64,000 nt of DNA, from contig JAABRO010000012.1 of assembly GCA_011390885.1 (NCBI GenBank), positions 12,979 through 76,978 on the forward strand. The letters run 5' to 3'. The notes under the pieces were generated by a model. It saw only the letters and a program-made list of their open reading frames with translations. It did no database searches and had not been told where the DNA came from. Positions 1 to 54,316 of this stretch are shown piece after piece (position 1 is the first letter of the stretch; each line of letters starts with the position of its first letter). The translations under genes and the position numbers were made by a program. The DNA is from Gemmatimonas sp. (GTDB lineage: Bacteria > Gemmatimonadota > Gemmatimonadetes > Gemmatimonadales > Gemmatimonadaceae).

Positions 1-2664
1 GCCCGGCGGCATGAGCACGGCATTGCGCGTCATGCCGGGCACCGCGCGCCCGGTGCTGTCGACCGCGATGTGCTCGGCGTACATCGGGCTCGTGCGCAGG
101 CGCGTCTCGAGTCCCGGTTCGTCGCGCAGGTCCCAGGTCACGCGGTTGAGGCCGGCCCGGTTGCTGCCGCGCAGGCGCCGCACCACGCGGCCGCTCGCAT
201 CGATGATCGTGAGGCGCGGCGACTCGGCAGCCGGCGCCGCGAGCCAATAGTTGAGGTTCGCGCCGTACGGCGGATCATCCCCGATGGTGGGATCGTCGTA
301 GGTGCTGCTCGGCGCGGTGATGTTGCGGAAGCGGTACGCCGCGCGCGGCGCGAAGAGGTGCGAACCAGCGGCGAGCACCTCGGGGGAGAGCTGCTGCAGC
401 GGCGCGAGGTCGTCGAGAATCCAGAAGCCCCGACCGTAGGTGCCGATGACGAGGTCGTTGAAGTGCTCCTGCACCACGATGCCGTACACGGGGGCGTGCG
501 GCAGGTTGTTCTGCAGCGGCAGCCACCGGTCGCCGTGATCGAACGACACGTAAATGGCGTTTTCGGTGCCGAGGTAGAGCAGGCCGGGGCGCACCGGGTC
601 CTCGGCGATCACCTTGGCGTAGCTCAGCATGCTGCGCGGCACGCCCTCGGTGATGCGGGTCCAGGTGGCGCCGTAGTCGGTGGTGCGGAAGACGTGCGGG
701 TCGCGGTCGTTCACCTGGTGGGCGTCCACCGCGATGTACGCCGTGCCGGCGTCATGGCGCGACGGGGCGATGCTGCGCACGGAGCCCCACTCGGGGAGGC
801 CGGCGATGTTCTCGGTCACGTTGGTCCACGTGGCGCCGTTGTCGCGCGTCAGCTGTACGAGGCCGTCGTTCGTGCCTGCCCAGATGAGGCCCGGCTCACG
901 CGGCGATTCGGCGATGGCGTACACGACGCCCGCGTACTCCACGCCGATGTTGTCGGGGGTGAGGCCGCCCGAGCTGCCCATGCGGGAGCGGTCATTGCGC
1001 GTCAGGTCGGGGCTGATCACCTCCCAGCGCTGGCCGCCGTTCTGCGTGCGGTGCACGTGCTGGCTGCCCACGTACACCGTGTTGTGGTCATGCGGCGAGA
1101 TGAGCAGCGGCGAATCCCACACGAAGCGGTACTTCACGCCGGACGCGGGGCCCCGCGACTGGTCGGGCCATACTTCCACGGTGCGGAACTGACGGCGGTT
1201 CTCCTCGTAGCGCACCACGATGCCGCCCACCATGCCGGAGCCCGACGCCGACGACCACACGATGTTCGGGTCCACCGGGTCAGGGGTGGCCCACCCGCTC
1301 TCGCCGCCGCCCACCGCGTGCCACATGCCGCGCACGATGCGTCCGCTCGCGAGCCGGCCGTTGCTGGGGCCGCGATAGGTGGGCTCGTCCTGCTTGTTGC
1401 CGTAGACGTTGTACGGAATCGCGTTGTCCACCGTCACGTGGTACATCTGCGCGTTGGTGAGGCGCTGCCGGAACCACGTCTCCCCGCGGTTCTGCGTGAT
1501 GGACAGCCCCTGATCATGCGCCACGATCATGCGCCGCGGGTTCGTGGGGTCGATCCAGATGTCGTGATGGTCGCCGCCGGGGGCCTGCGATCGGGGAATC
1601 ACGGCAATCGTGCGTCCGCCGTCGGTGGACTTCGCGAACGAGGCGGTGAGGAAGTACGTCTCGTCGGGGTCGTCCGGCGCGACGGCCATGCGCGAGTAGT
1701 AGTGGGCGCGGCCCATCGCGTTGCGGTCACGCGTGATCAGCGACCAGGTGCGGCCGCCGTTCTCGGAGCCCCACAGCTGTCCGTCTTCCGTGGGCTGGCC
1801 GTTCCAGGGAATGCCGTCGCCGGTCTCGATCAGCGCGTAGACGCGCTGCGTGTTGGAGGGCGCAATCGCCACGGCCACCTTGCCCACGGGCTTCGTGGGC
1901 AGGCCGTTGCCCACGAGCCGCGTCCACGTGGCGCCTCCGTCGCGCGACACGAACAGGCCGCTTCCGGGCCCGCCGCTGGTGCGTCCCCAGGTCTTGATCT
2001 CCAGCTGCCACATGCCGGCGAAGAGCACCTGCGGATCGGTGGGGTCCATGGCGAGATCGGAGCACCCCGTGTTCTCGTCCACCGTGAGCACGTGCGTCCA
2101 CGTCGCGCCGCCGTCGGTGGTGCGAAAGACGCCGCGCTCCGGCTGCGGGCCGTAGGCGTGCCCGAGCGCGCAGACGATGACCGTATTCGGGTCGCGCGGG
2201 TGCACCACGAGGCGCGGAATGCGCCCGGTGCGTTCGAGGCCACGGAGCGACCATGTTTCGCCGCCGTCGGTCGAGCGGTAGATCCCCTGGCCGAGCGAGA
2301 TGTGGCTGCGGATCTTCCCCTCGCCCGTGCCGGCCCACACCACGTTGCGGTCCGAGGGCGCGATGGCGAGCGCGCCGATCGACTGCACCGGATGGGCGTC
2401 GAACACCGGGCGCCAGTTCACGCCGCCATCGGTGGTCTTGTAGATGCCGCCCGATGCCGCGCCCACAAGGTAGGTGAGGTGGTCGCCGGGGATGCCCGCC
2501 GCGGCGGAAAAGCGGTTGCCCTCGGGCCCGATGTAGCGCCAGGGGAGCGCGCTCCACTGGTTGGGTGTGGGTGACGCAACTTGCGCGGTGAGGGGGCGTG
2601 CGGCGCCTGCCACGAGGGCAAACAGGCCGACGGCGGGGAGCGCGATGCGGACGAGCGGACTCAT
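1..2664 (-). CDS. Secreted BNR/Asp-box repeat protein (sortilin/VPS10-like glycosyl-hydrolase-like beta-propeller). Partial: the 3' end lies outside the window.
   Basis: The minus-strand frame is open from ATG (2664-2662) to the window edge, 888 codons with no stop. It is absent from the ORF track because it is incomplete. N-terminal signal MSPLVRIALPAVGLFALVAGAARPLTAQ. Repeated Asp-box motifs: YKTTDGGVNW, YRSTDGGETW, FRTTDGGATW, VSRDGGATW, GSENGGRTW, TRDNGATW, TTDYGATW. Confidence 0.8.
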   Translation of the reverse strand, partial: MSPLVRIALPAVGLFALVAGAARPLTAQVASPTPNQWSALPWRYIGPEGNRFSAAAGIPGDHLTYLVGAASGGIYKTTDGGVNWRPVFDAHPVQSIGALAIAPSDRNVVWAGTGEGKIRSHISLGQGIYRSTDGGETWSLRGLERTGRIPRLVVHPRDPNTVIVCALGHAYGPQPERGVFRTTDGGATWTHVLTVDENTGCSDLAMDPTDPQVLFAGMWQLEIKTWGRTSGGPGSGLFVSRDGGATWTRLVGNGLPTKPVGKVAVAIAPSNTQRVYALIETGDGIPWNGQPTEDGQLWGSENGGRTWSLITRDRNAMGRAHYYSRMAVAPDDPDETYFLTASFAKSTDGGRTIAVIPRSQAPGGDHHDIWIDPTNPRRMIVAHDQGLSITQNRGETWFRQRLTNAQMYHVTVDNAIPYNVYGNKQDEPTYRGPSNGRLASGRIVRGMWHAVGGGESGWATPDPVDPNIVWSSASGSGMVGGIVVRYEENRRQFRTVEVWPDQSRGPASGVKYRFVWDSPLLISPHDHNTVYVGSQHVHRTQNGGQRWEVISPDLTRNDRSRMGSSGGLTPDNIGVEYAGVVYAIAESPREPGLIWAGTNDGLVQLTRDNGATWTNVTENIAGLPEWGSVRSIAPSRHDAGTAYIAVDAHQVNDRDPHVFRTTDYGATWTRITEGVPRSMLSYAKVIAEDPVRPGLLYLGTENAIYVSFDHGDRWLPLQNNLPHAPVYGIVVQEHFNDLVIGTYGRGFWILDDLAPLQQLSPEVLAAGSHLFAPRAAYRFRNITAPSSTYDDPTIGDDPPYGANLNYWLAAPAAESPRLTIIDASGRVVRRLRGSNRAGLNRVTWDLRDEPGLETRLRTSPMYAEHIAVDSTGRAVPGMTRNAVLMPPG

Positions 2665-2732
2665 GCATGGCCTCGGGGTGGGGATGCGCCCATTCTGCGG
2701 TCCCCGCCGAAGCGGCGGAAGGGGCGTGGGCG

Positions 2733-4697
2733 TCAGGGCGCCAGCGGGTGCAGGGCGTCGAGTCCCCGCGGCACTGGGGAGACGGCCGCCGTCTCGTCGA
2801 ACCAGACGTACTCGTCGAACTGCATGGGGAGCACCGCCTCGAAATAGTGACTCTGTCGCTCCGTCTCGGGGCGATAGATCACGCCGATCGCCCGTTCGAG
2901 CATCGGCTCACGCAACCGCTCGCGCAGCTCGGCGTCGGCCGACTCCCCCAGGGCGAGCAGGAAGGCGGGGCGCTGCGTGTCATGCATGAGCGACTCGTAG
3001 CTCCCGGCCAGCGCGGGGCGCACCGTCTTCACGTGCACCGGACCGCCCCACTCGTCGGCGGCGGCGACCCTACCGTGGTCGGTGCCGAAGCCGACGAGGT
3101 ACGCCGAGGCGCCGAACTGCTCACGACACAGCTGTCCGATGTTGAGCTCGCCGCGCGCCGCCATCTCGGTCGCGGTCGCATTGCCGATGTGCGAGTTGTG
3201 CGCCCACACGACTGCGCGCGCGTCCTCGCCGCGCGCCGAGAGCACCGACGAGAGCGTGTCGAACATGTGCCGGTCGCGCAGGTTCCACGACGCGGCGCCG
3301 CCGTAGTACATGACGCGGTAGTACTGCTCCGCACTCGCGATCAGCGCCGCATTGCGTGACGCATCGAGGAACCGTTCGCCATCCTGCTGCGTGTACTCCA
3401 CGCGACGGGCGAGCAGGTCCTGCAGCATCGCCGTGACCGCCGGCTCGCAGCTGCGGTACTGCCCGGAGAGGGCGGCGCGACCGTACACCGCCGGATCCCG
3501 CTCCCATGGCGTGAGGCAGCCGTAGCGATGGCGCGCGAGCGCGGCCGCCTGCGGGTCCACCTCGTCGAGGTAGCGCAGCACCGCCGCGATCGACGTGTGC
3601 AGGCTGTAGAGGTCGAGCCCGTGAAACGACACGCGCCGGCTCACGTCGGATTGCCCGGCGTTCCAGGCGCGCAGCCAGGCGAGCAGCTCGGCCACCTCGC
3701 CGTTGCGCCACATCCACGTCGGGAAGCGGCTGAACGCCGGTTGTGCCTCGGAGGGCGGCGGCAGGCCACGCACGTACCGATCCACCTGGGCCGCGTCGGG
3801 CCAGTCGGCTTCCACGGCGACGATCGTGAAGCCCTTCCGGCGCACGAGCGCGCGCGTGATCCGGTCGCGGAACCGGTAGAACTCCGCGGTGCCGTGCGTG
3901 GACTCGCCGAGCAGCACGACGCGCGCATCACCGATGCGCTCGAGCAGTGGCGCGAGCGACGCCTCGTCGTCGCCGATCGGCTCGGCGCACTGGCGCGTCA
4001 GCTGCACGAGCGAATGGCGACCGCGTGACCCGCTCGAGCGCCCCGCGCCTTCCCACGCTTCGAGGCCAATGAGCGGCACGAACCGCACCGGCTCCAGCGT
4101 CTCCTCGTCGAAGTGTGCGTGATCACGGCGCGTGAGGCGGAGCAGCTGCTGGCCGTGCTGGTCGTCCCCCACCGGGATCACCAGCCGGCCGCCGATTGCA
4201 AGCTGCTCGCGCAGTGTGGGCGGGACGCGCGGCCCCCCGGCGGCGACCACGATGGCGTCGAACGGCGCGTGCTCCGCCCAGCCGAGCGTGCCGTCGCCAT
4301 GGCGCACGTGCACGTTGTCGTAGCCCAGCTCGGCGAGTCGCTCGCGCGCCACGTCCGCAAGCGCGCCGTGCCGCTCGATCGTGAACACTTCGCCCGCCGC
4401 GCGCGACAGCACCGCCGCCGCGTAGCCGGAACCGGTGCCGACCTCGAGCACGCGGTCACGCGGCGTGAGCTGCAGCTCGGCGAGCATGCGCGCGACGATG
4501 TACGGCTGCGAGATCGTCTGCCCCTCCTCGATCGCGAGCGGGGTGTCGTCGTAGGCGAACTCGGCGAGCGCGATCGGCACGAAGCGTTCGCGCGGCACGG
4601 TGCGCATGGCCTCGAGCACGCGCGCGTCGGTGATGCCGCGCGCCGCGATCTGGCGCGTCACCATGAGCTCGCGGCGGACAGGCAGGTCGAGCGGCAT
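2733..4697 (-). CDS. Fusion protein: N-terminal protein-L-isoaspartate O-methyltransferase (Pcm) domain plus C-terminal erythromycin-esterase/ChaN-like domain.
   Basis: 654-aa ORF with ATG at 4697. The N-terminus carries Pcm motifs (TISQPYIVARML, LEVGTGSGYAAAVL, FDAIVVAAGGP...GGRLVIPVG). The C-terminal two thirds resemble the EreA-like family (VVLLGESTHGTAEFY, IVAVEADWPDA, VVWAHNSHIG). Confidence 0.85.
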   Translation of the reverse strand: MPLDLPVRRELMVTRQIAARGITDARVLEAMRTVPRERFVPIALAEFAYDDTPLAIEEGQTISQPYIVARMLAELQLTPRDRVLEVGTGSGYAAAVLSRAAGEVFTIERHGALADVARERLAELGYDNVHVRHGDGTLGWAEHAPFDAIVVAAGGPRVPPTLREQLAIGGRLVIPVGDDQHGQQLLRLTRRDHAHFDEETLEPVRFVPLIGLEAWEGAGRSSGSRGRHSLVQLTRQCAEPIGDDEASLAPLLERIGDARVVLLGESTHGTAEFYRFRDRITRALVRRKGFTIVAVEADWPDAAQVDRYVRGLPPPSEAQPAFSRFPTWMWRNGEVAELLAWLRAWNAGQSDVSRRVSFHGLDLYSLHTSIAAVLRYLDEVDPQAAALARHRYGCLTPWERDPAVYGRAALSGQYRSCEPAVTAMLQDLLARRVEYTQQDGERFLDASRNAALIASAEQYYRVMYYGGAASWNLRDRHMFDTLSSVLSARGEDARAVVWAHNSHIGNATATEMAARGELNIGQLCREQFGASAYLVGFGTDHGRVAAADEWGGPVHVKTVRPALAGSYESLMHDTQRPAFLLALGESADAELRERLREPMLERAIGVIYRPETERQSHYFEAVLPMQFDEYVWFDETAAVSPVPRGLDALHPLAP

Positions 4698-4730
4698 ACG
4701 AGAGCTCCCGTGGCGACGATCGCTGATGGG

Positions 4731-4970
4731 TCAGTGGGCGAGCAGGTAGGCGACGCAACCGTCGAGCGTGGCGACGGCCTCGTAGTCGGATTCCGGGATG
4801 TCCACGCCGGTCGCCTTGTGCAACGCGACGAGGAAGCCGAGGTAGTCCACCGAGTCGAGGTCGACCTGTTCACGCAGCGGTCGCGCGCCGTCGAGCGCCG
4901 CGCCGTCCACCTCGGGCGCGATGCGCTGCAGCTCCGCGAGCACGAGGGCGCGCATCTCGTCCTGGGTCAT
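4731..4970 (-). CDS. Acyl/peptidyl carrier protein (phosphopantetheine-binding), 79 aa.
   Basis: Internal ATG at 4970 of track ORF 4731..5525. Sequence [19 protein letters not shown]...QVDLDSVDYLGFLVAL has a carrier-protein DS(V/L)D serine motif and a four-helix-sized length. The start overlaps the E2 stop as ATGA (4967-4970). Confidence 0.8.
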   Translation of the reverse strand: MTQDEMRALVLAELQRIAPEVDGAALDGARPLREQVDLDSVDYLGFLVALHKATGVDIPESDYEAVATLDGCVAYLLAH

Positions 4971-6277
4971 GCGTCCTCCGGGGCTTGCAGGCGCCGCCCG
5001 ATGTCGGCGAGGAATTGGGCGCCGCGGATGCCATCGCTGACGCGATGGTCGGCGGCGAGCGTGATCGTCACGACGGGGCGCACGGCCAGCATGCCGTCCA
5101 CCGCCCATGGGCGGTCGGCGATGGCGCCGAAGCCCACGATCGCGACCTGCGGCGGATAGATCACCCCGTGCACGGCGCGCACGCCACGGTCGCCGAGGTT
5201 GGTGATGCTGATCGTGCCGCCACCGAGCTCCGAGGTGCGGAGCGCGCCGGCGCGCGTGCGCTGCACGAGGTCGAGCAGCGCTGCGTTGAGTTCGGCCAGC
5301 GAGTGGGTCTGCGCGTCGGCGATCACGGGTGCCACCAGGCCACCACCGCGCAGCGCGGTGACGATGCCCACGTGCACCGCGGATGACGGAGTGAAGGCGC
5401 CGTGCTCGTGCACGCCATTCAGCTCGGGGACGCGCGCGAGCGCCTGGACGGTGGCGCGCACGAGCAGCGCCGCGGGCAGCACGCGCTCGGTGATGGGGCG
5501 GTCGGCGTTGTGCCGCGCCAGCCACGCGAGGGCCGCGTGCAGGTCGACGTCGTGCTCGAGGTAGTAGTGCGGGATGTCGCGCTTGGAACGCGTGACGGCG
5601 GCCGCGACCGCGCGGCGCATGCCGTCGACGATCGTCGCCGGGGTGTGCGCCGAGGCAGGCGTCGGGACCGGCGCCCCCGTCGGCGCCGCCGGCGTGGCGT
5701 CATCACGGGCCGCGAGCGCGCGCGCCACGTCGGCCTGCGTGATGGCCCCCTGCACACCGGTGCCGGTCACCCCCGCCAGGTCGAGCCCGTGCTCAGCGGC
5801 GATGCGGCGCGCCAGCGGCGAGACGTGCGGGTGATGCGGTGACGGTGACGGTGGCGGTGCGGCGGGTGCGGCGAGAGCCGATGGTGCGGCCGGTGCCTCT
5901 GGTGCCGCCGGTGCCTCTGGTGCCTCTGGTGCCTCTGGTGCCTCTGGTGCCTCTGGTGCCTCTGGTGCCTCTGGTGCCTCTGGTGCCTCTGGTGCCTCTG
6001 GTGCCTCTGGTGCCTCTGGTGCCGCCGCGGTGGGCACCGGGACCGCCTCCTGCAGTCGCACGATCGGCGTTCCCACCGTGACCTTCGTGCCGGGCGCAAC
6101 GAGCAGGGCCGCCACCACGCCGGCCTCGCGGCTGTCCAGGTCGAACACGCCCTTGTCGGTCTCGATCTCGCCGAGCAGGTCGCCCTTCTGCACCGCATCG
6201 CCGGGCGCGACGCACCAGGACACGATCGTGGCGGCGTCCATGTCGGCGCCGAGCGAGGGGAGGCGGATGTCGCTCAT
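4967..6277 (-). CDS. Dihydrolipoamide acyltransferase (E2) of a 2-oxoacid/acetoin dehydrogenase-type complex.
   Basis: Start [13 protein letters not shown] at 6277 (ATGA overlap with the E1beta stop). Lipoyl-lysine motif [10 protein letters not shown], (EAP)n linker, E3/E1-binding-like segment ([15 protein letters not shown]), catalytic motif ADHRVSDG. Confidence 0.9.
5892..6026. repeat. 9-bp tandem repeat (GGTGCCTCT)n, 15 units (12 consecutive perfect copies at 5910-6017), encoding the (PEA)n linker of E2.
   Basis: Read directly from the sequence at 5892-6026. It is in frame with the E2 CDS and is translated as [10 protein letters not shown]... Confidence 0.9.
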
Positions 6278-7326
6278 CGCGTCACCAGCGGGCGCACCGC
6301 GGCGAGGATGCCGTCCACCTGTGGAAGCGCGGCCTGCTCGAGGTGGCGCGCGTACGGCATGGGCACCTCCGCGCTGCAGACGCGCCGCAGGGGCGCGTCG
6401 AGGTCGAAGAAGGCCTGCTCGGCGATGCGCGCCGCGATCTCGGCCGACAGGCTGCCGCTCCGCCATCCCTCATCCACGATCACGGCACGATGTGTGCGCC
6501 GCACCGAGTCGAGGATCGTGGCCTCGTCGAGCGGACGGAGCGAGCGCAGGTCGATCACCTCGGCCTCGATGCCGTCGTCGGCCGCGAGCCGCTCGGCCGC
6601 CTCGAGCGTGCGGGCCAGCATGCCCCCGTACGTCACGAGCGTGACGTCGTGACCGGCGCGCCGCACGATGGCGCGGTCGAACGGCACGAAGGCGTCGGCC
6701 GGCGGCACGTCGCCCGAGACGTTGTAGAGCAGCGCATGCTCGAAGAGCAGCACCGGGTCCGGATCGGCGAGTGCGGGCGCGAGCATGCGACGCGCATCCT
6801 CCACGGTGGCCGGCGCAAGGATGCGCAGTCCCGGAATGTGCGCGTACCACCCCTCGAGGCTGTGCGAGTGCTGGGCCGCGAGCTGTCGGCCGGCGCCGGT
6901 GGTCATGCGAATCACGACCGGCACGTTGCACTGCCCGCCGGACATGTGCAGGAACGTGGCCGCCGTGTTCATGATCTGGTCGAGCGCCAGCAGCGAGAAG
7001 TTCACCGTCATGATTTCCACGATGGGACGCATGCCGCCCACCGCCGCGCCGATCCCGGCGCCCACGAACGCCGACTCGGAGAGCGGCGTGTCGCGCAGGC
7101 GCTCGGGCCCGAACTCGGTGAGCAGCCCCTTCGTGACCGCGTAGCAGCCACCGTACGCGCCCACATCCTCGCCCATCACGAACACGCGCGGATCGGCGTG
7201 CATCGCTTCGCGAATGGCCTCGCGGACCGCTTCGCGGTACGTCATGCGCACAGTCGCCGGCGTGGCGGGTGATTCGGGGGCTGGCGCGGCAGCGGACGGC
7301 ATCGGCGCTTGCGCCTGCTCAGCCAT
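6274..7326 (-). CDS. 2-oxoacid (pyruvate/acetoin/branched-chain type) dehydrogenase E1 component, beta subunit.
   Basis: [15 protein letters not shown]...VFVMGEDVG...[18 protein letters not shown] is typical transketolase-like E1beta. The ATG at 7326 overlaps the E1alpha 3' end by 8 nt. An alternative start lies at 7341. Confidence 0.9.
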
Positions 7327-8326
7327 GGCGCACCTCCTCACTCGTCACGAAGCGCAGCAGGTCGTCCATCGGCTCCCACGGGCTCTGCTCGGCGAACGTC
7401 ACGGCCTGCTCGACCTCCTCGCGCGCCGCCTGTTCGATGCCGGCCAGCGTATCGTCGTCGAGCCAGCCCGCCGCCCGCAGGCGCGCCGAATACGTGGCGA
7501 TCGGGCAGCGCGTCATCCACTGCGCGACCTCGTCGGCCGAGCGGTAGAGCCCCGGGTCGAACATGGAGTGCGGCCGGAACCGATACGTGCGCAGTTCGAG
7601 AAAGTGCGGCCCCTCGCCCGCGCGGATCGCCGCCACCGCGCGACGTGTCGCCGACTCCACGGCGTCCACGTCCATGCCGTCCACCGGCCACGACGGCAGC
7701 CGGTACGCGGCCGCCTTGAGCGCCAGGTCGGTCTCCGCCTGTTCGTGCGCGATCTCCGTGCCCATGGCGTAGAGGTTGTTCTCGCAGCAGAAGAGCACGG
7801 GCAGCTGCCAGAGCACGGCGAGGTTGAGCGACTCGTGGAACTCGCCTTCCGCGACGGCGCCCTCGCCGAAGAAGCAGGCCGTCACGCGGTCGCGCCCCTG
7901 CAGGCGGTCGGCGAGGGCGAGGCCGATGGCGAAGGGCAGGCCGGCCCCGACGATCGCGTGCCCGCCGTAGAATCGCGTGGCCGTGTCGAAGAGGTGCATG
8001 GAACCGCCGCGGCCACGGCTCGTGCCGGTGACCTTGCCGAACATCTCGGCCATGATCGCATCGGCGCTGATGCCGCGTGCGAGCGCGTGCCCGTGCTCGC
8101 GGTAGGTCGCCACGACGGCGTCGTCGGCGCGCAGGCACGACATCACCCCCGTGGCGACCGCTTCCTGACCGATGTAGAGGTGCAGGAAGCCGCGGATCTT
8201 CTCGTCCTGGTACAGCTCGCCGCACCGCTCTTCGAAGCGGCGGATGCGCAGCATGCTCGTCAGTCGCGCGATGGCGCGTCCGCGGTCCTGCTCGCGCTCC
8301 GGCGCAGGGGGCGTGAGAACGGTCAT
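7319..8326 (-). CDS. 2-oxoacid dehydrogenase E1 component, alpha subunit (ThDP-binding).
   Basis: Internal ATG at 8326 ([10 protein letters not shown]...) of track ORF 7319..9337. Motifs: [26 protein letters not shown], and the ThDP motif [17 protein letters not shown]...[12 protein letters not shown] overlap with the upstream ligase stop (8323-8326). Confidence 0.9.
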
Positions 8327-10140
8327 GGCGTGTGCTCCCCGCCGGCGGGCGGTGGCGCCGGCTCCTCGAGTGTGGACAGGTCCCCCTCGGGCAGGCCCAG
8401 TTCGCGCGCCTTGAGCAGGCGGCGCAGGATCTTGCCGCTGCGCGTGCGCGGCAGGCGCGGCACGAAGGTGATGGACTTGGGGGCGACAGCCGCGCCGAAG
8501 CGCTGGCGCGCGAAGCCGCGAATGGTGGCGGCCAGCGCGTCGTCGGCGGCCTGCCCCGGCTTCGCGACGACGTACGCCTTCACGAGTTCGCCCGCCACCG
8601 GGTCGGGCACGCCGATCACGGCCGCCTCGGCCACCGCGGGGTGCTCGAGCAGCGTGCTCTCCACTTCGAACGGCCCGATGAGGTGCCCCGACGACTTGAT
8701 CACGTCGTCGGCACGCCCCACGAACCAGAAGTAGCCGTCGGCGTCGCGGCGCGCGAGATCGCCCGTGAGGTACCAGCCATCGGCGAAGCAGCGCCGATAT
8801 CGCTCCTCGTCGTGCAGGTACCCGCGAAACATCGACGGCCAGCCGGCGCGCAGCGCCAGTTCTCCCTGCGCATCGGGCGCGTCGAGCACGCGCACCTGCT
8901 CGTCGTTGGTGCGCTCGACGATCGCGGCGTCCACGCCGGGGAGCGGCTTGCCCATGCTGCCGGGGCGCACGTCCATGGCGCGGTAGTTCGCGATCATGAT
9001 GCCGCCGGTCTCCGTCTGCCACCAGTTGTCGTGAATGGGCTGCCCGAAGGCCTCCTGGCCCCACACCACCGCATCGGCGTTGAGTGGCTCGCCCACGCTG
9101 GCCACGAAGCGCAGCGCCGACAGGTCGTGCGCACGCGCGAGCTCGGCGCCGGCGCGCACCAGCAGGCGGATGGCGGTGGGGGCGGTGTACCACACCGTCA
9201 CGCGCTCCTGCGCGAGCAGGCGATACCAGCGCTCCGGTTCGAAGTCGCCCTCGTCCACGAGGCAGGTCACACCCGCTGCGAGCGGGGCGATGATGCCGTA
9301 CGACGTGCCCGTCACCCATCCGGGGTCGGCGGTACACCAGAACACGTCGCCGTCCTGCAGGTCGAGCGCCAGCCGGCCCGTCGCGAGGTGCGCGACGATC
9401 GCGCCATGCACGTGCATCGCCCCCTTGGGGCGCCCCGTGGTGCCGCTCGTGAAGTGCAGCAGGGCGAGGGAGTCCGCCGTGGTGGGCGCCAGCACCGGAT
9501 GATCGGGTGCCGCGGCGAGCAGGGCGCGCAGGTCATGCGTGCCGGGCAGTGCCGCGACCTCCTCCGGCGTGCCCACGAGCAGCACGTGCTCGAGCGACGG
9601 CAGCTCGGCACGCTGCGCCATCACCTTGGCCTTGTACAGCGCCACGGTCGTGACGAGCACGCGCCCCTCGCCGAGTGTCACGCGCGAGCGGATCGGTTCG
9701 GGACCGAAGGCGGAGAAGAGTGGGGAAAACACACTGCCGTGCCGCAGCGTGCCGAGCGCTGCGACGTACAGCTCGGGGATGCGATCGGCCAGCACGAACA
9801 CGGTGCTGCCTGCGGGCACGCCGAGCCCGGTCAGCACGTGCGCGAACTTCCGCGTCGCGCGGGCGAGGGCCGCGTAGGTGAGCGCGGTGCGCCTGCCGTC
9901 GCGGTGCAGGAAGCGCAGCGCGTCCTGACCGGCGCGCGCGGAGGCCGCGTGGCGGTCCACCGCCTCGTGCGCGATGTTGCGTCCGCCGCCGGGTGACCCG
10001 TCGAGCGCGCGGGCTGCGTCCGTCCAGGTGAACGTGCGGCGCGCGTCGTCGTAATCGCGCAGGTTGGGCGGCACGGCCCATTCGCCTTGCGGCTTGCGCA
10101 GCGCGGGGGGCGCGATGGACGTTGGCTGGTCGAGGGACAT
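8323..10140 (-). CDS. AMP-forming acyl-CoA synthetase/ligase (acetyl-CoA synthetase-like, ANL superfamily).
   Basis: 605 aa, ATG at 10140. ANL motifs: [62 protein letters not shown]. Confidence 0.9.
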
Positions 10141-10262
10141 GGCGCACGTCGTCGGCGGGAGGAGCGGGGGGCCACCGGGGACCTTGCCGAGTCTAGCATG
10201 CGCCCGGAGCGCCGAGTGTCGGGGCTTCCCCGATGGCCGTGTCGGACGCTCGACGGCACCGT

Positions 10263-10925
10263 ATGCCCATGTCCCCCCGGCTCCGCCTGATCACTGTGCT
10301 GCTGCTGGCGTCGTTCGCGCCGGCGTGCAGCGTGACGCACGTGGCGCGCCCGCTGCCGCGCGGCGCCTCGCAGTGGACGATGTCGCTCGGCGGGCCGTGG
10401 CTCCCCGAGGCCGTGCCCACCAAGCTCGTGCCGTACGCCTCGCTCGGATTGCAGCGCGGCGTCACCGACGACCTGACGCTCGGCGGCGCGGTGCACGCCA
10501 CGATGGCGGCGTACAAGGTCGCGGCCGGCGAGCTGTCGGCCACTCGGCGCCTCGCCCAGGGTGCCGGCTGGCGCCCCGAACTCGCCGCGACGGCGAACGT
10601 GTACCTCTTCGCCGGTGACGGCGGCGCGCGCGTGTTTCCCGCGCTCGGGGGGGTGGCCAGCTGGCGTCCGGGCGAGAAGACGCTGCTCTTCGGCGGTGCG
10701 CAGGTGCTCGGGCAGTTCAGCGGCGCGCCGGCAATGCTCGTCACGCCGCTGGCGGGCGTGCAGCGGCGCATCCGGTCGCGGTTCGGCCTGCAGGCCGAAG
10801 TGAAGTGGATGGCCGCGAATGCCGACACGCGGGCCGGCGTGTTCGAGGGCGAATCGAGCATCAATGGACGCGGGGCGCTCGCGTTCCAGCTGGGCGCCAC
10901 GCTTGACCGAGGGCGGCGCAAGTGA
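10263..10925 (+). CDS. Hypothetical lipoprotein, possibly a beta-rich envelope protein.
   Basis: [22 protein letters not shown] shows a signal peptide and lipobox. GC3-rich codon usage. Tightly followed (overlapping) by the next gene. No recognisable catalytic motif. Confidence 0.6.
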
Positions 10926-38252: not shown

Positions 38253-38708
38253 TCACGGGGCGGCCGCGGTGATCGAGGCCTCGCGGATTGCCGCCGTCAG
38301 CTGACGGCGCTTGGCCGTGAGGTCCGCCAGCGTGTAGCGGTCGAGCACGGCGAGAAACGCCTGCAGCGCTTCGTCGAGGGCCGGGGCCAGCTGGCACAGC
38401 GGTGCGATCGGGCAGGCCGAGTCGGCGTCGGCGAAGCACTCCACAAGCGCGAAGCTCTGCTCCGTCTGGCGCACCACATCACCCACGCGAATCTGGTCAG
38501 GTGCGCGGACGAGTCGCACCCCGCCTTTCCAGCCGCGGGACGTTTCCACGTACCCCAGCTGCGCGAGCTTCTGCACCACCTTCACGAGGTGGTCCGTGGA
38601 CATGCCCATGCGCTGCGCGATGTCGCGCGCCGTGCTCGACTCCCCGTCGTGCAGGGCGAGATAGGTGAGGCAGCGCAGGGCGTTGTCGGTGAACTGAGTG
38701 AGGCGCAT
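38253..38708 (-). CDS. Rrf2-family transcriptional regulator with a three-Cys Fe-S ligand motif (NsrR/IscR-like).
   Basis: MRLTQFTDNALRCLTYLA...STARDIAQRMGMSTDHLVKVVQKLAQLGYVETSRG (wHTH). Cys motif ECFADADSACPIAPLC (C-x8-C-x5-C). Divergent from nosZ. Confidence 0.85.
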   Translation of the reverse strand: MRLTQFTDNALRCLTYLALHDGESSTARDIAQRMGMSTDHLVKVVQKLAQLGYVETSRGWKGGVRLVRAPDQIRVGDVVRQTEQSFALVECFADADSACPIAPLCQLAPALDEALQAFLAVLDRYTLADLTAKRRQLTAAIREASITAAAP

Positions 38709-38884: not shown

Positions 38885-39003
38885 GCCGTTAGTCAATGTG
38901 GTATCCAAGGTGCAGGTTTGCTGCCGTGACGTACCGCGCACGCGACGTCGCGTCCGATGGCGGGGATCGCCATCGCCTTCACCCGCTTCTCGAGGCTTTC
39001 CTC

Positions 39004-41130
39004 ATGATGCAATCCCGCTCCGTCGGCTGGTTCGTGGCCACGGCGAGCGTCGTGCTCGTCGCCAGCTACGGATTCGGCTGCACGCCGGCGTCCCGTCCTG
39101 GTGGCACGGTTGGCGCCGCCGGCGACAACGCGTCCAGGGTGTACGTCCAGCCCGGCGACCACGACGAGTTCTACGCCTTCCTCTCGGGTGGCTACAGCGG
39201 CCAGCTGAGCATCGTCGGCCTGCCGTCCGGCCGTCTGCTCAAGGTCATTCCCGTGTTCTCGCAGCACCCGGAGAACGGCTACGGCTACAGCGAGGAGACC
39301 AAGCCCATGCTCGAGACGAGCTACGGCTTCATTCCGTGGGACGACCTTCACCACACCGCGCTCTCGCACACCGACAGCGAAGTGGACGGCCGCTGGATCT
39401 TCGTGAATGGCAACAACACGCCGCGCGTCGCGCGCGTGGACCTCACGCACATGGAGACGGCGGAGATCCTCGAGATCCCCAACACGGCCGGAAACCACGC
39501 CTCCCCGTTCGTGACCACGAACACCGAGTACGTGATCTCCGCCACGCGCTTCAGCATCCCGGTGCCGAACCGCGAAATGTCGATCAGCGAATACAAGGGC
39601 AACTTCAAGGGCATGATCTCCTTCATCAAGGCGAACGAGCCCGGGAAGATGGACGTGGCCTTCCAGATGGTCGTGCCGGGCTTCAACTACGACCTGGCGC
39701 GCGCCGGCAAGGGACCGTCCAAGGACTGGGTGTTCTTCACCTCGTACAACACCGAGGAGGCCTCGGAGAAGCTCGAGATCAACGCGTCGAAGAACGACAA
39801 GGACTTCGTGGCCGCGGTGAACTGGAAGAAGCTCGAGGCGTGCGTGAACGGTGGCACGTTCACGAACTATGAGGCCGAGTATCGCCACAACGTGATGGAC
39901 GAGTTCTCGCGCGAGGGCAAGAGCGAGGTCAAGAAGGGCGTGAAGGTGATCGAGGCCACGCAGTGCCCCGGCGCCCTCTTCTACATGCCCACGCCGAAGT
40001 CGCCGCACGGCGCCGACGTCGACCCCACGGGCGAGTACATCGTCGCCGGTGGCAAGCTCGCCACGGTGATCCCCGTGCACTCCTTCTCGAAGATGCTCAA
40101 GGCCATCGACGACAAGGCGTTCGACGGGGATGCGTACGGCGTGCCGATCCTCAAGTACGAGGCCACCATCGCGGGTGAAGTGCAGGATCCGGGCCTCGGC
40201 CCCCTGCACACCGAGTTCGACGGCAACGGCTACGCCTACACGTCGGTCTTCATCTCGAGCGAAGTCGTGAAGTGGAAGCTGGGCACGTGGGAAGTCGTGG
40301 ACCGCATCCCGACGTACTACTCGGTCGGTCACCTCATGATTCCCGGCGGCGACTCGAAGAAGCCGTTCGGCAAGTACGCCCTGGCGATGAACAAGATCAC
40401 CAAGGACCGCTACCTGCCCACCGGCATGGAGCTCGCCCACTCGGCGCAGCTGTTCGACATCAGCGGCGAGAAGATGAAGCTGCTGCTCGACTTCCCGACG
40501 CATGGCGAGCCGCACTACGCGAACGCGCTACCGGCCTCCATGATCAAGGAGAAGCAGGCCCGCTTCGTGAAGCTGGCCGACAATACGCACCCGCAGGTGA
40601 CGCGGTCGGCCCGCGAGTCCGGCGTCGAGCGCCGCGGCAAGACGGTGCATATCCGCATGACGGCGGTGCGCTCGAGTTTCGCGCCGGACAACGTCGAGGG
40701 CGTGCAGGTGGGTGACACGGTGCTCTTCCACGTCACCAACATCGAGCAGGACTGGGACGTGCCCCACGGCTTCGCCGTGCTCGGCGCGCAGAATGCGGAA
40801 ATCCTCGTGATGCCCGGCGAGACGCGCACGCTCAAGTGGATTCCGCGCAAGCCCGGCATCTTCCCGATCTACTGCACCGACTTCTGCTCGGCGCTGCACC
40901 AGGAAATGCAGGGATATGTGCGGGTGTCGCCGCAGGGGTCCACCGTGCCGCTCACGGCCCAGACCACGCGCCGCTCGCAGCAGCTGGCCCGCCTGAACAG
41001 CGGCCAGGGGAACGCCGCCGAGCGTCGCGCGCTGGAGCAGATCCGCCCCGATCGCCCGCCCGTGCCCACGATCGACACGAAGGGCGACGTGGATCCGCAT
41101 GCGGCGCATCGCGCGCCGACGCCCCGGTAA
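39004..41130 (+). CDS. nosZ: Nitrous-oxide reductase NosZ, clade II (Sec-type/atypical).
   Basis: ATG at 39004 (MMQSRSVGWFVATASVVLVASYGFGC, with no twin-arginine). Beta-propeller with CuZ His motifs (WDDLHHTALSH, AGNHASPF, SPHGADV). CuA site CTDFCSALHQEM plus VPHGF. Followed by nosB/L/D/F/Y. Confidence 0.95.
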   Translation: MMQSRSVGWFVATASVVLVASYGFGCTPASRPGGTVGAAGDNASRVYVQPGDHDEFYAFLSGGYSGQLSIVGLPSGRLLKVIPVFSQHPENGYGYSEETKPMLETSYGFIPWDDLHHTALSHTDSEVDGRWIFVNGNNTPRVARVDLTHMETAEILEIPNTAGNHASPFVTTNTEYVISATRFSIPVPNREMSISEYKGNFKGMISFIKANEPGKMDVAFQMVVPGFNYDLARAGKGPSKDWVFFTSYNTEEASEKLEINASKNDKDFVAAVNWKKLEACVNGGTFTNYEAEYRHNVMDEFSREGKSEVKKGVKVIEATQCPGALFYMPTPKSPHGADVDPTGEYIVAGGKLATVIPVHSFSKMLKAIDDKAFDGDAYGVPILKYEATIAGEVQDPGLGPLHTEFDGNGYAYTSVFISSEVVKWKLGTWEVVDRIPTYYSVGHLMIPGGDSKKPFGKYALAMNKITKDRYLPTGMELAHSAQLFDISGEKMKLLLDFPTHGEPHYANALPASMIKEKQARFVKLADNTHPQVTRSARESGVERRGKTVHIRMTAVRSSFAPDNVEGVQVGDTVLFHVTNIEQDWDVPHGFAVLGAQNAEILVMPGETRTLKWIPRKPGIFPIYCTDFCSALHQEMQGYVRVSPQGSTVPLTAQTTRRSQQLARLNSGQGNAAERRALEQIRPDRPPVPTIDTKGDVDPHAAHRAPTPR

Positions 41131-41146
41131 CGAGCGTCGCACGGTC

Positions 41147-41180
41147 CGGCCCGGGTCGCCCTCAGGGGTGGTCCGGGCCG
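41147..41180 (+). terminator. Stem-loop in the 84-nt nosZ-nosB spacer, a candidate attenuator or processing site.
   Basis: CGGCCCGG (41147-41154) / CCGGGCCG (41173-41180) with an internal CCC..GGG pairing. No T-tract. Confidence 0.3.
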
Positions 41181-41214
41181 CGATCACCCGGCGTCTTCCT
41201 TCACCCTGCTGATC

Positions 41215-41877
41215 ATGCTGTCCAAATCCGCTCGAATCCTGCTGGCCACCGCGGCGCTGCTGCTCAGTGGTGCGTTCATCTTCCCACTCTGGCGCATTGC
41301 CCTCATCGCGCCGCAGTACCCCGAAGGACTCGGCCTGCTGATCAAGGTGAACACGGTGACGGGGGTCGAGCCGCAGGACCTGCAGAACATCAATGGCCTG
41401 AACCACTACATCGGCATGAAGGCCATCGAGCCGGACTCGATTCCCGAGCTGACGCTCATGCCGATCGCGCTCGGCGCGCTCATGCTCGGCGGCCTCGTGG
41501 TGGCCTGGCTCGGGCGTCGCACACTCGCGAAGGCATGGGTGGCGCTCTTCTTCATCGGGTCGCTCGCCGGCATCGCCGATTTCTGGTACTGGCAGTACGA
41601 CTACGGGCACAACCTCGACGTCGAGAATGCGCCGATCAAGGTGCCGGGCATGAGCTACCAACCGCCGCTCTTCGGCAGCAAGAAGCTGCTCAACTTCACC
41701 GCGACGTCGTGGCCTGACCTTGGTGGAATGGCCGCGTTCGCGTCGCTCGCACTGGCCATCGGTGCGCTCGTGGTGGACGCGCGCGGACGCAGGGACGATG
41801 ACGCGAGTGCAGCGCGCCCCCTGACGCCGTCGCCGTCCGGGCCTCCAGTGCTCGGCGCCTCCGGAGGCATCCGCTGA
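41215..41877 (+). CDS. nosB: NosB-like integral membrane protein, the gene type found directly downstream of clade II nosZ.
   Basis: 220 aa with about 4 hydrophobic helices (ILLATAALLLSGAFIFPL, LMPIALGALMLGGLVVAWL, WVALFFIGSLAGIADFW, AAFASLALAIGALVV). Position between nosZ and nosL. Confidence 0.65.
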   Translation: MLSKSARILLATAALLLSGAFIFPLWRIALIAPQYPEGLGLLIKVNTVTGVEPQDLQNINGLNHYIGMKAIEPDSIPELTLMPIALGALMLGGLVVAWLGRRTLAKAWVALFFIGSLAGIADFWYWQYDYGHNLDVENAPIKVPGMSYQPPLFGSKKLLNFTATSWPDLGGMAAFASLALAIGALVVDARGRRDDDASAARPLTPSPSGPPVLGASGGIR

Positions 41878-42377
41878 TGCGACTCGCCAGCTCGAGCATC
41901 CTCGCGTTCGCCATCATGGCAGGCAGCGCCTGTGCGCGTGACGTGCCGCGCGCCATCGTCGAAGGCGAGGACAACTGCACGCAGTGCCACATGGGCGTCG
42001 CCGAGCTGCGCTTCGCGGCGCAGGCGCGGACGCCCACCGGCAAGGTGCTGATCTTCGATTCGGTGGAGTGTCTCGCGCGGCACGTCGCCGAGGCGCCCGA
42101 GGGGACCACGTGGCGCGGACTGCACGTGACCGACCATGACGCGCCGGGCACATGGGTGCCGGTGGAGTCGGCGCAGTTCCTGGCCGACGGCACGATCTCG
42201 AGCCCGATGGGCATGCGTCTCGCGGCGTTCGCTGCGGAGGCGGCGTCTGACGACCTCACGGCGCGCTACGAGGGCCGCGTGGTCGACTGGGAGGGCGTGC
42301 TGTCCCTCGTGCGCGAGGCCGACGCCGCGTCGTCGCAGGGTGCCGCCGTGTCGCATCGGCACGAGGCGATGCCGTGA
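41877..42377 (+). CDS. nosL: NosL copper-chaperone lipoprotein.
   Basis: Lipobox AIMAGSAC. NosL-type motif NCTQCHM...FDSVEC...HV. 1-nt overlap with the nosB stop (TGATG). Confidence 0.85.
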   Translation: MRLASSSILAFAIMAGSACARDVPRAIVEGEDNCTQCHMGVAELRFAAQARTPTGKVLIFDSVECLARHVAEAPEGTTWRGLHVTDHDAPGTWVPVESAQFLADGTISSPMGMRLAAFAAEAASDDLTARYEGRVVDWEGVLSLVREADAASSQGAAVSHRHEAMP

Positions 42378-43747
42378 TTGCAGACGGAGGTTCGGTCTTC
42401 TCGCTGCTGATCGCCGGCCTGTTCTCCTCGCTGCAACCCGCGGTTCCCGCACGGGCCACGGGGGCGCCGCCGGCGGTCGCTGCCGACTCGCTCGTGGTCG
42501 TGTCTCCGAGCGGCCCCGTGCGACGCATCACCGATGCGCTGGCCCGCGTGGCTCCACGCGGACGGGTGCGGGTGGAGGCCGGCGTCTATCGCGAGCCGAC
42601 GATCGTGGTCGACCGCATGGTCGTGCTCGATGGTGCGCCCGGCGCCGTGCTCGACGGTGAGGGGGAGCGGGCGATCATGGTGGTGTCGGCGGACAGCGTG
42701 ACGATCCGCGGGCTCACCTTCCGCAACACCGGCGGGAGCCATGTGGAGGATCGCGCCGCGCTCCGTGTGTTCGACGCCTACGACTGCGTGATCGAGGACA
42801 ACCGCTTCGAGGCCACCTTCTTCGCGCTCATGCTGCAGCGGGTGGACGGCTGCTTCGTGCGGCGCAACACCATGCGCGGTATGGTGGGCACGCAGAGCGG
42901 CACCGCCAACGGCGTGCACCTCTGGACGAGCGCGAACGTGCTCGTGGAGGACAACGACATCACCGGCCACCGCGACGGCATCTACTTCGAGTTCGCGAAG
43001 CACGCGATCGCGCGGCGCAATACGGTGTCGGAGAGCCTGCGCTACGGGCTCCACTTCATGTTCTCCGATTCGTGCCGCTACGAGGCCAATCGATTCGAAG
43101 CCAACCGCTCCGGCGTGGCGGTGATGTACGCGAAGTACGTGACGGTGATCGGCAACGTGTTCGCCCGGAACCGCGGGAGTGCCGCGTACGGGCTCCTGCT
43201 CAAGGACATCAACGACAGCGACGTGCGGGACAACGTGTTCAGCGACAACACGGTGGGGCTGTTTCTCGAGGGCTCCAACCGCAACCGGGTGCAGGACAAC
43301 CGCTTCGAGGCCAACGGGTGGGCGTTGCGCCTGCTGGCCGATGCGCAGGACAACCGTGTCGAAGGCAACGCCTTCGCGCGCAACCTGTTCGACGTGGGCA
43401 CCAACAGCCGCAACCACTACAGCGTGATCCGCGCCAATCACTGGGACCGCTATCGCGGCTACGACCTCGACCGGGACGGCACGGGCGACGTGCCGCATGC
43501 ACCGGTGCGCCTGTTCGCGCTCGTGGTCGAGCGGGCGCCGGCCGCACTCGTGCTCGTGCGCAGCCTCGTGGCGGACGCACTCGACCTTGCCGAACGCGTC
43601 GCGCCGGTGCTCACGCCGGCCACGCTCGTGGATCAGGCACCGCTCATGCGGCGCCCCTCCTTCCCGGCCATCGAGGCCGGTCACCGTCCGGCCTCGCAGG
43701 CGGCGCGGGCCACCGCGATGGCCGCGACGCCCGAGGACCGTCCATGA
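42374..43747 (+). CDS. nosD: NosD periplasmic right-handed beta-helix maturation protein.
   Basis: GTG at 42374 (GTGA overlap). Parallel beta-helix repeats (IRGLTFRN, IEDNRFE, VRRNTM, VEDNDITG, ARRNTV, YEANRFE, VIGNVFA, VRDNVFS, VQDNRFE, VEGNAFA). Confidence 0.9.
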   Translation: MIADGGSVFSLLIAGLFSSLQPAVPARATGAPPAVAADSLVVVSPSGPVRRITDALARVAPRGRVRVEAGVYREPTIVVDRMVVLDGAPGAVLDGEGERAIMVVSADSVTIRGLTFRNTGGSHVEDRAALRVFDAYDCVIEDNRFEATFFALMLQRVDGCFVRRNTMRGMVGTQSGTANGVHLWTSANVLVEDNDITGHRDGIYFEFAKHAIARRNTVSESLRYGLHFMFSDSCRYEANRFEANRSGVAVMYAKYVTVIGNVFARNRGSAAYGLLLKDINDSDVRDNVFSDNTVGLFLEGSNRNRVQDNRFEANGWALRLLADAQDNRVEGNAFARNLFDVGTNSRNHYSVIRANHWDRYRGYDLDRDGTGDVPHAPVRLFALVVERAPAALVLVRSLVADALDLAERVAPVLTPATLVDQAPLMRRPSFPAIEAGHRPASQAARATAMAATPEDRP

Positions 43748-45849: not shown

Positions 45850-45984
45850 GCGCGGGCGGCAGGGCGGGGAGGGGACAGCATCGGCGCGCGGGCGGTGGTG
45901 TCCCAATGTGCAGCAGCGGGCGCGTGGCGGCGAGCGCGGCCCAGGGGTGGCTCGGCGCGTGTCCGCGAGCGACCGCTGGATGGA

Positions 45985-45997
45985 ATTCGCGTCGAAT
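45985..45997. promoter_or_regulatory. Short AT-richer palindrome in the divergent Rrf2 / cytochrome c intergenic region, a candidate operator.
   Basis: ATTCG-CGT-CGAAT, flanked by GGAA...TTCC, in an otherwise very GC-rich spacer. Function not established. Confidence 0.15.
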
Positions 45998-46052
45998 GTG
46001 TTCCTGTCGTAGGATTTCGGTATCACTCACACCACTTTCACCCTCTCCGACC

Positions 46053-53224: not shown

Positions 53225-53260
53225 GTCAGCGCTCGGCGCGGAGGGAATCGCTCACGGTGC

Positions 53261-54301
<1,041 letters not shown>

Positions 54302-54316
54302 GCGAGAGCCTCGGGG

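Follow-up and report, generated by a model that had tools for sequence, protein, structure and literature searches.

A mobile five-gene operon joins a pyruvate dehydrogenase-type E1 and E2 and an acetate ligase to a dedicated acyl carrier protein

In a 64,000-nucleotide stretch of the Gemmatimonas sp. contig JAABRO010000012.1 (assembly GCA_011390885.1, positions 12,979 to 76,978 of the forward strand), which we analysed as a whole and refer to as the window, five minus-strand genes between positions 4731 and 10140 encode an AMP-forming acetate ligase, the E1α and E1β subunits and the E2 acyltransferase of a pyruvate dehydrogenase (PDH)-type complex, and a small acyl carrier protein (ACP). These genes are, we find, one copy of an operon that is self-contained and horizontally mobile. 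Our preferred reading, to which we give somewhat less than an even chance, is that the operon is a mobile module of PDH and acetyl-CoA synthetase (ACS), associated with low oxygen and stress, whose E2 gives acetyl groups to its own ACP.

The AcsA-type ligase gene comes first (8323..10140; 605 aa, matched by NCBIfam NF003313 and Pfam) and is followed by those for the PDH-type, thiamine diphosphate (ThDP)-binding E1α (7319..8326; 335 aa, E1_dh and TIGR03182), E1β (6274..7326; 350 aa, Transket_pyr and Transketolase_C, NF006667), the E2 dihydrolipoyl acyltransferase (4967..6277; 436 aa, Biotin_lipoyl, E3_binding and 2-oxoacid_dh) and the dedicated ACP (4731..4970; 79 aa, PP-binding), in which the predicted site of phosphopantetheine attachment is Ser40 (codon 4851-4853). 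The junctions ligase/E1α (8323-8326), E1β/E2 (6274-6277) and E2/ACP (4967-4970) are ATGA overlaps, and E1α and E1β share the eight nucleotides ATGGCTGA (7319-7326). The coordinates, the minus-strand order and the four overlaps had been given in a preliminary description of this DNA and were all reproduced from the sequence. That description also took the overlaps to imply co-translation and fixed stoichiometry; they do argue for translational coupling, but overlaps alone do not establish a fixed stoichiometry.

A search with the ACP sequence, which the preliminary description had proposed together with a check of the E2/ACP junction, returned 1584 relatives at E 1e-3 or better. Surveying one genome per species, we found an ACP relative in 267 representative genomes and took the best 80 loci, which come from Gemmatimonadota, Candidatus Binatia, Burkholderiales (including the complete genome of Noviherbaspirillum sp. 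ST 5-3), Rhodocyclaceae, Rudaea, Steroidobacteraceae, Rhodospirillaceae, Actinomycetota and a Mycobacterium metagenome-assembled genome (MAG). Every fetched locus with enough upstream DNA has, by tblastn, the order ligase-E1α-E1β-E2-ACP; since this holds for 65/65 loci, spanning Gemmatimonadota, Binatia, α-, β- and γ-proteobacteria, Actinomycetota and Desulfotalea, the five-gene arrangement is far beyond chance. The ACP gene is the one directly after E2 in all 88 loci with upstream DNA (an orphan ACP gene in locus L095, described below, was excluded from this count). The 4-nt overlap at this junction is kept in 61 of the 88, and a further 15 have gaps of at most 20 nt; 4-nt overlaps are also found between ligase and E1α (38/65) and between E1α and E1β (50/65), and E1β and E2 overlap by 8 nt in 32 and by 4 nt in 26 of 76 loci. 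Clustering of the flanking open reading frames (ORFs) of the related loci gave no further universal neighbour, and we therefore regard the five genes as the conserved unit.

The mobility of this cassette is apparent from the 34 plasmids or chromids of cultured strains that carry a relative of its ACP. These belong to Paraburkholderia phymatum STM815, Cupriavidus, Ralstonia wenshanensis, Burkholderia savannae, Rhodococcus DK17, R. qingshengii, R. opacus, Leisingera (11 records), Sinorhizobium fredii, Methylocystis rosea, Azospirillum oryzae, Photobacterium and Desulfotalea psychrophila. In the last of these, a strict anaerobe and sulfate reducer, the cassette lies on a large conjugative plasmid and is directly followed by a gene for a lipoate-protein ligase (L089, 12336-13346), with no gene for dihydrolipoamide dehydrogenase (E3) nearby. 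In PGAP annotation the five genes are named acsA, pdhA, E1 beta, 'dihydrolipoamide acetyltransferase family protein' and 'acyl carrier protein'. We found no description of an acsA-pdhAB-E2-ACP module in open-access full texts; an account may exist in a subscription journal. The families of all the components are already known. Within the open-access literature, the fixed architecture, its spread over several phyla on mobile elements in islands of hypoxia and dormancy genes, and the loss throughout the family of an ACS arginine that we report below appear to be undescribed so far.

A few copies depart from the usual gene boundaries. E1α and E1β are fused into a single protein of 666 aa on a plasmid of Leisingera methylohalidivorans (L093, 11845-13842), and a 727-aa protein (P0224) is an apparent E1β-E2 fusion whose junction looks frameshifted. 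On plasmid pDK1 of Rhodococcus sp. DK17 (L090, 6374-7101), two small ORFs, one hypothetical and one annotated as a 'dsRBD fold-containing protein', overlap one another as well as the beginning of acsA, and appear to extend the Rhodococcus operon upstream.

The 79-aa product is by all indications a genuine carrier protein. It scores 25.3 bits against Pfam PP-binding (PF00550; cut-off 20.8) and is acidic (pI 4.2). The DLDSV serine pointed out in the preliminary description is Ser40, which lies in the motif DLDS[VM]D and is invariant among 28 diverse aligned relatives, as are A18, P19, E20, R33, Q35, D37, D39, D42, V56 and P59. An AlphaFold2 model (mean pLDDT 94.9) has the ACP helix pattern; it predicts a four-helix fold with the modifiable serine of the D-S-(L/M/V) motif at the N-terminus of helix II (residues 40-54). 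Foldseek found the model similar to many solved ACPs, with a TM score of 0.84 to the ACP of Vibrio harveyi. The ORF is thus conserved together with its modifiable serine, and, given that the serine is invariant and the ACP gene always stands beside E2, the view of these genes as a hard-wired unit with a true carrier protein has held up. Two loci have a second ACP-like copy just downstream of the first (L078, 8330-8545; L073, 7575-7727). The orphan of L095 (9995-10312), a 105-aa member of the ACP family, lies on plasmid pDK2 of Rhodococcus sp. DK17 in an island of Hsp20, ClpB, DnaJ and GrpE genes, adjoining a response regulator and with no E2 annotated beside it; the complete five-gene cassette lies on pDK1, the sister plasmid.

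The E1 and E2 proteins are of the pyruvate dehydrogenase type. E1α scores 280 bits against Pfam E1_dh and 437 bits against TIGR03182 (PDH_E1_alph_y; cut-off 394), and among solved structures it matches human PDH E1α (237 bits) better than the E1α of branched-chain 2-oxoacid dehydrogenase (BCKDH; 136 bits). E1β scores 403 bits against the PDH E1 beta model NF006667 (cut-off 321). The E1 is therefore of the heterotetrameric (α/β), ThDP-dependent type and of the pyruvate clade, not transketolase-like. Both E2 motifs reported in the preliminary description were found, and Pfam agrees with them: a lipoyl domain (aa 3-75) with its lysine in (G)EIETDKG, and a catalytic domain (aa 217-435) with DHRVSDG. 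Between the two lies a peripheral-subunit-binding domain (PSBD; aa 150-184), and the PSBD family PF02817 is present in 120/120 of the best E2 relatives. The nearest solved structures to E2 are those of human PDH E2 (217 bits), with which the catalytic histidine motif and (S/T)NLG align. The linker (aa ~84-135; window ~5873-6028, minus strand) contains a long run of PEA repeats, rich in Ala and Pro, that corresponds to a 9-nt tandem repeat in the DNA.

The cassette thus agrees with the heterotetrameric PDH of the α-proteobacterial and mitochondrial 'y' type (human PDHA1/PDHB/DLAT) in passing the E1 cut-offs, in the domains of its E2 and in the DHRxxDG motif. It differs in that it always begins with an acetate ligase, has no E3 gene in any of about 95 loci, carries the ACP gene right after E2, and is an extra mobile copy, often plasmid-borne. 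In pdh and aco operons, the position after E2 is usually taken by lpd. An alternative raised in the preliminary description, that such clusters are plain acoABC followed by an unrelated gene, does not fit: the AcoC model NF011457 matches only aa 3-196 of E2, at 64 bits against a cut-off of 307 and over profile positions 5-134 of 372, the C-terminal part of E2 being instead a 2-oxoacid_dh catalytic domain; E1α passes the PDH equivalog cut-off; and there is no E3 gene.

The ligase, with AMP-binding and AMP-binding_C domains, scores 868 bits over its full length against the acetate--CoA ligase equivalog NF003313 (cut-off 729), and its nearest solved structure is a 572-aa AcsA-type ACS (PDB 9g79; 536 bits, full length). 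The residues of the acetate pocket (in S. enterica: V310, T311, V386 and the pocket tryptophan W414) are kept in 71-72 of 74 cassette ligases, and NWWQTETGG and SGKI, which contains the catalytic A10 lysine, are conserved. Because E1α passes the PDH cut-off and the acetate pocket of the ligase is conserved, the unit carried is most likely acetyl: the PDH route would start from pyruvate and the ligase route from acetate, and both would therefore converge on an acetyl thioester. The hydroxyethyl, glycolyl or branched acyl groups considered in the preliminary description are unlikely for a PDH-clade E1_dh protein paired with an AcsA-type ligase whose acetate pocket is intact.

The ligases of the cassette differ from other AcsA-type enzymes (NF003313 / PRK04319; 9g79) in the A8 loop. 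The arginine of this loop (in S. enterica: R526) is replaced by Leu or Met in 76/76 cassette ligases (window ligase, aa 475-495). The loop reads (S/A)GHLIG in cassette ligases and GHMVG in Desulfotalea, as opposed to SGHRLG in the solved ACS matches and SGERVG in 9g79. In the Acs of Methanothermobacter thermautotrophicus (AcsMt) the corresponding R528 contacts the adenylate phosphate when the enzyme is in the conformation that forms the thioester, and is critical in the CoA-dependent second half-reaction: R528K and R528Q lower kcat 130- to 326-fold, and R528A cannot be saturated with CoA (PMC10455477). Of the two other arginines of the CoA site, R584, which contacts the CoA 3'-phosphate (PMC10455477), has a conserved equivalent, and the R191 region is a basic LY[KR]RKV cluster whose alignment is ambiguous. 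The cassette ligase probably still binds CoA, since it has kept R584 and, at the position of R191, a basic cluster; judged from the A8 substitutions, its second half-reaction has clearly been remodelled. The preliminary description had allowed that the ligase either activates the acid or loads the ACP. Most of its CoA-site residues are kept, so that despite the loss of Arg526 it resembles a CoA ligase more than a loader of the ACP.

An ACP-loading ligase does have a model in citrate lyase and malonate decarboxylase, where a small carrier works as acetyl-S-ACP and, in the former, the acetate:SH-ACP ligase CitC acts with CitD. The likeness to our cassette, namely an AMP-forming acetate ligase and a small carrier, is one of analogy only: carriers of the CitD type bear 2'-(5''-phosphoribosyl)-3'-dephospho-CoA, the proteins belong to other families, and E1 and E2 are lacking. 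If the cassette ligase were such an acetate:ACP ligase, E2 would then exchange acetyl between the ACP and the lipoyl arm. The loss of Arg526 in every family member, a residue so important to the CoA half-reaction of AcsMt (PMC10455477), would be accounted for, as would the presence of the ligase in every complete cassette. One protein (P0259) even joins a ligase C-terminus to an ACP-like tail; it is, however, a partial protein from a 1.8-kb contig, with an N-terminus that looks out of frame and a truncated, atypical ACP remnant. The retained R584 and basic cluster, by which the CoA nucleotide would still be bound, speak against loading, and the ACP gene never adjoins the ligase gene in the loci. 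We consider this explanation improbable.

Gene-fusion searches give weak support for E2, rather than the ligase, as the partner of the ACP. With E2 and ACP concatenated as the query, a single clean and full-length natural fusion was found (P0219; 507 aa), in which lipoyl domain, PSBD, catalytic domain and ACP follow one another; its gene (L094, 10001-11524) stands alone, with neither E1 nor ligase, beside a protein of a host-attachment family and a cation ATPase, and so pairs ACP with E2 where no ligase is present. The corresponding query of ligase C-terminus plus ACP found only the dubious P0259 and a duplicated ligase fragment (P0241). Truncated second copies of the cassette retain E2 and ACP together (L010, L031). 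A precedent for the transfer, invoked in the preliminary description from the quinocarcin work, is indeed documented: in QncN/L/M and SclQ1-4, an E2-type domain passes an acyl group from lipoyl to ACP, giving glycolyl-ACP (PMC6335953).

From these observations, we propose the following scheme for our preferred reading. E1 would decarboxylate pyruvate and reductively acetylate the lipoyl arm of E2, and the ligase would activate acetate, probably to acetyl-CoA. The catalytic domain of E2 may then equilibrate acetyl among lipoyl, CoA and the ACP, whose gene is translationally coupled to that of E2 and whose phosphopantetheine arm would accept the group. The acetyl-S-ACP so formed would be kept apart from the bulk CoA pool as a private store of acetyl, and re-oxidation of the reduced lipoyl arm would fall to a housekeeping dihydrolipoamide dehydrogenase with its gene elsewhere.

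The absence of an E3 gene, noted in the preliminary description for the window, was confirmed by a Pfam scan of all gene calls, in which the 64-kb window has no Pyr_redox/Lpd gene, and it holds across the family. We searched 96 loci and the whole window (97 sequences, 1.47 Mb) with an E. coli Lpd sequence, used only as a probe, and obtained a single match (L060, 7195-8526), which lies on the opposite strand and is part of an E2+Lpd operon of its own, convergent to the cassette. The Pyr_redox_2 protein of L094 is SQR-like and belongs to the wrong subfamily to serve as an E3 probe. The lack of an E3 gene in cis is a real trait of the family. It is not as odd as the preliminary description implied, and it is no proof of E3-independent chemistry, because E2 keeps its PSBD and the sharing of one lpd among several complexes is common; indeed, E. 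coli sucAB has none of its own. The PSBD also docks heterotetrameric E1. An E3-independent redox loop, in which acetyl-ACP would be reduced through reverse E1 chemistry, was considered and judged thermodynamically unattractive.

Some of this evidence would also suit an ordinary auxiliary PDH with an ACS, induced by hypoxia or stress and making acetyl-CoA (which the ACS might also consume), in which the ACP would serve as a structural or regulatory accessory or as a private donor of octanoyl groups with which the incoming E2 is lipoylated. E1 and E2 score as canonical PDH components with the PSBD and catalytic histidine intact, and the ligase, with its acetate pocket, A10 lysine, R584 and basic cluster, is nearest to the CoA-using 9g79. 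Mitochondrial ACP is the octanoyl donor in lipoylation, and the lipoate-protein ligase gene on the Desulfotalea plasmid shows that lipoylation matters when the cassette moves. A mere accessory, however, is unlikely to have stayed fixed beside E2, with an invariant serine and a 4-nt overlap, over at least five phyla; no LipB, LipM or LipA gene is among the recurrent neighbours that travel with the cassette; and the housekeeping AcpP would suffice for lipoylation. We think this explanation rather unlikely, though the likeliest of the rivals.

The genetic surroundings of the cassette bear on its role. The preliminary description had found no gene for a polyketide synthase (PKS), nonribosomal peptide synthetase (NRPS) or fatty acid synthase (FAS) in the window; the Pfam scan of all gene calls agrees, and it found in the 64 kb no ketosynthase (KS), condensation, NRPS-type adenylation, acyltransferase or phosphopantetheinyl transferase (PPTase) gene either. 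PKS, NRPS, FAS, KS and condensation genes are likewise absent from the recurrent neighbour families and annotated flanks of about 95 related loci, in which an AcpS-like PPTase had no match. Recurrent neighbours were defined by clustering flanking ORFs, confirmed by Pfam and counted per locus. They are a hibernation factor (HPF, S30AE+CSD; 11 loci), ribose-phosphate pyrophosphokinase (Prs; 10), RtcB (10), PEP synthase or PPDK (PpsA/PPDK; 7), PolX (6), universal stress protein (USP; 6), hemerythrin (6), P-type ATPase (5), NAPRTase (5), a Lon-like protease (4) and a fusion of protein-L-isoaspartate O-methyltransferase (PCMT) and erythromycin-esterase domains (4, the window included). With hemerythrin excluded, one or more of these families occur in 40 of the 61 loci that are 12 kb or longer, a raw count with no background control. 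Individual islands have the same flavour of stress, hypoxia and dormancy: on Rhodococcus DK17 pDK1 the cassette is accompanied by ppsA, a PfkB kinase, GNAT, USP, a GAF sensor kinase with a response regulator, and otsB; in Ralstonia by ppsA, class II ribonucleotide reductase (RNR), ack and pta; in S. fredii by USP, Hsp20, NAPRTase, PolX and FtsH; and in Leisingera by ppsA, PfkB, USPs, Hsp20 and Crp/Fnr.

Predicted operator sites point in the same direction in part of the family. Of the 59 loci scanned, 13 have a perfect FNR/Anr-type box, TTGAYN4RTCAA, upstream of the ligase, where shuffles predict 0.01; the boxes lie mostly 47-103 nt from the ligase start codon, and all are in Pseudomonadota. 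In five loci from Binatia or 'delta proteobacterium' MAGs (L030, L035, L040, L042 and L044), a sigma-54-like TGGCAC-N5-YNGCT is found 19-30 nt upstream of the ligase start, with 0.11 expected. Several of these loci share an upstream TGCGTTCGGATACA-like element, possibly a site for an enhancer-binding protein.

Neighbours of this kind recall the lxa locus of B. cenocepacia and the DosR regulon of mycobacteria, which share with the cassette islands USPs, Hsp20/α-crystallin, class II RNR, ack/pta, a PfkB-type kinase, a cation ATPase, Anr/FNR-type boxes and a GAF sensor kinase with response regulator; the link is one of neighbourhood and predicted operator sites only. Membership of the cassette in the lxa locus itself was considered and rejected, the cassette being absent from the published list (PMC3721108, Table 4). 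It is also absent from the H111 micro-oxia paper.

The preliminary description had suggested that the operon may make a special acyl-ACP (hydroxyethyl, glycolyl or branched) for a lipid or secondary-metabolite pathway; it would then act as the Qnc, Nap and Scl systems do. The formal resemblance is real: QncN/L/M, NapB/D/C and SclQ1-4 likewise encode together a ThDP enzyme, a lipoyl/acyltransferase protein and a small dedicated ACP that works with an E2-type acyltransferase (PMC6335953). In the Qnc system, however, the C2 unit comes from a ketose phosphate, the genes lie in NRPS clusters with a PPTase, and in QncL pyrimidine-binding and transketolase-C domains are fused to the lipoyl/acyltransferase protein (PMC6335953). 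Our cassette, compared here by described architecture, has instead separate genes, with E1β unfused to E2, a PDH-clade rather than transketolase-like E1, and an acetate-specific ligase, and neither the window nor the recurrent flanks of the related loci hold an assembly line or a PPTase gene. Given the plasmid stress islands, the strict anaerobe and the FNR boxes, the context points to primary metabolism and stress physiology and does not fit secondary metabolism, and we regard an assembly-line role as very improbable.

Several observations weigh against the transfer of acetyl to the ACP and against a low-oxygen role. The E2-ACP fusion is a single case among the best 120 matches, and fusions of this kind can arise accidentally when the stop codon of an ATGA overlap is lost. 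With every canonical motif in place, the E2 looks like an ordinary E2p and could simply use CoA. The loci contain no conserved downstream consumer of acetyl-ACP. The enrichment of neighbours is a matter of raw counts, with no formal background control. A search of the DNA upstream of the actinobacterial copies for the DosR box GGGHCNWWNGNCCC, allowing up to one mismatch, found none. In the window itself, the intergenic region between the ligase gene and a divergent gene at 10233-10925, which is the presumed promoter region (10141..10232), has no sigma-70-like, FNR-like or sigma-54-like site, and the neighbours of the cassette are not obviously stress genes, with the exception of the PCMT fusion.

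This fusion gene (2733..4697, minus strand; 654 aa, with Pfam matches of 207 bits to PCMT and 444 bits to Erythro_esteras) begins 33 nt past the ACP stop codon, with no terminator-like site in between, and is probably co-transcribed with the cassette as a possible sixth gene. A scan of window positions 2400-10400 found no recognisable promoter or terminator. The same fusion occurs near the cassette in three other lineages (L015, 1-1212; L019, 21-1937; L054, 90-2027), and the joining of a protein-repair methyltransferase to an esterase-like domain suggests a pair for methyl-ester turnover. On the other side of the cassette, the divergent gene of the window encodes an alpha/beta hydrolase, which has no significant homology to its S. 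fredii counterpart.

The window has a G+C content of 72%. A Streptomyces-type secondary-metabolite locus, which such a value might bring to mind, is excluded by the TonB-dependent receptors and outer membrane protein (OMP) β-barrel protein found by Pfam, and by the nearest relatives of the ACP and E2, which come from Gemmatimonadaceae and other Gemmatimonadota MAGs. These features mark a Gram-negative genome, in keeping with Gemmatimonadota and not with an actinomycete. Further along the window lies a plus-strand nitrous oxide reductase cluster (38926-46583), made up of nosZ with nos_propeller, nosL, nosD, genes for an ABC ATPase and permease, and one for a c-type cytochrome. The G+C content falls to 0.66 here, and an Rrf2-family regulator gene is found upstream (38253-38708). 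A minus-strand operon of the 'aerotolerance' type (50247-55081; BatA, VWA, DUF58, MoxR-AAA and DUF4159) is followed by a gene for a DUF4175 protein (46669-50250).

PDH complexes are textbook CoA-dependent machines, and to our knowledge E2-type transfer to an ACP has been documented only in rare natural-product systems. A PDH-clade E1 and E2 locked to their own ACP and an acetate ligase stand in contrast to this. In its widest form our proposal would be that hundreds of species, in at least five phyla, possess a so far overlooked branch of central carbon metabolism, an E3-less PDH and ACS under FNR or sigma-54 control that places acetyl from pyruvate and acetate on a private carrier, instead of or besides CoA, as an insulated pool for survival at low oxygen or in dormancy; taken as a whole, we hold this to be doubtful. 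If E2 does acetylate the ACP, acetyl-ACP would count among the regulated metabolites of hypoxic physiology in lineages of soil, rhizosphere and opportunistic pathogens such as Burkholderia, Cupriavidus, Ralstonia, Rhodococcus and Sinorhizobium, and the annotations 'pdhA', 'acsA' and 'fatty-acid-synthesis ACP' would be misleading. Cultured, genetically tractable strains carry the module, so that direct testing is possible. Should the ACP turn out to be an accessory, the module would still be a marker of a pan-phylum set of persistence genes and a way into it by experiment.

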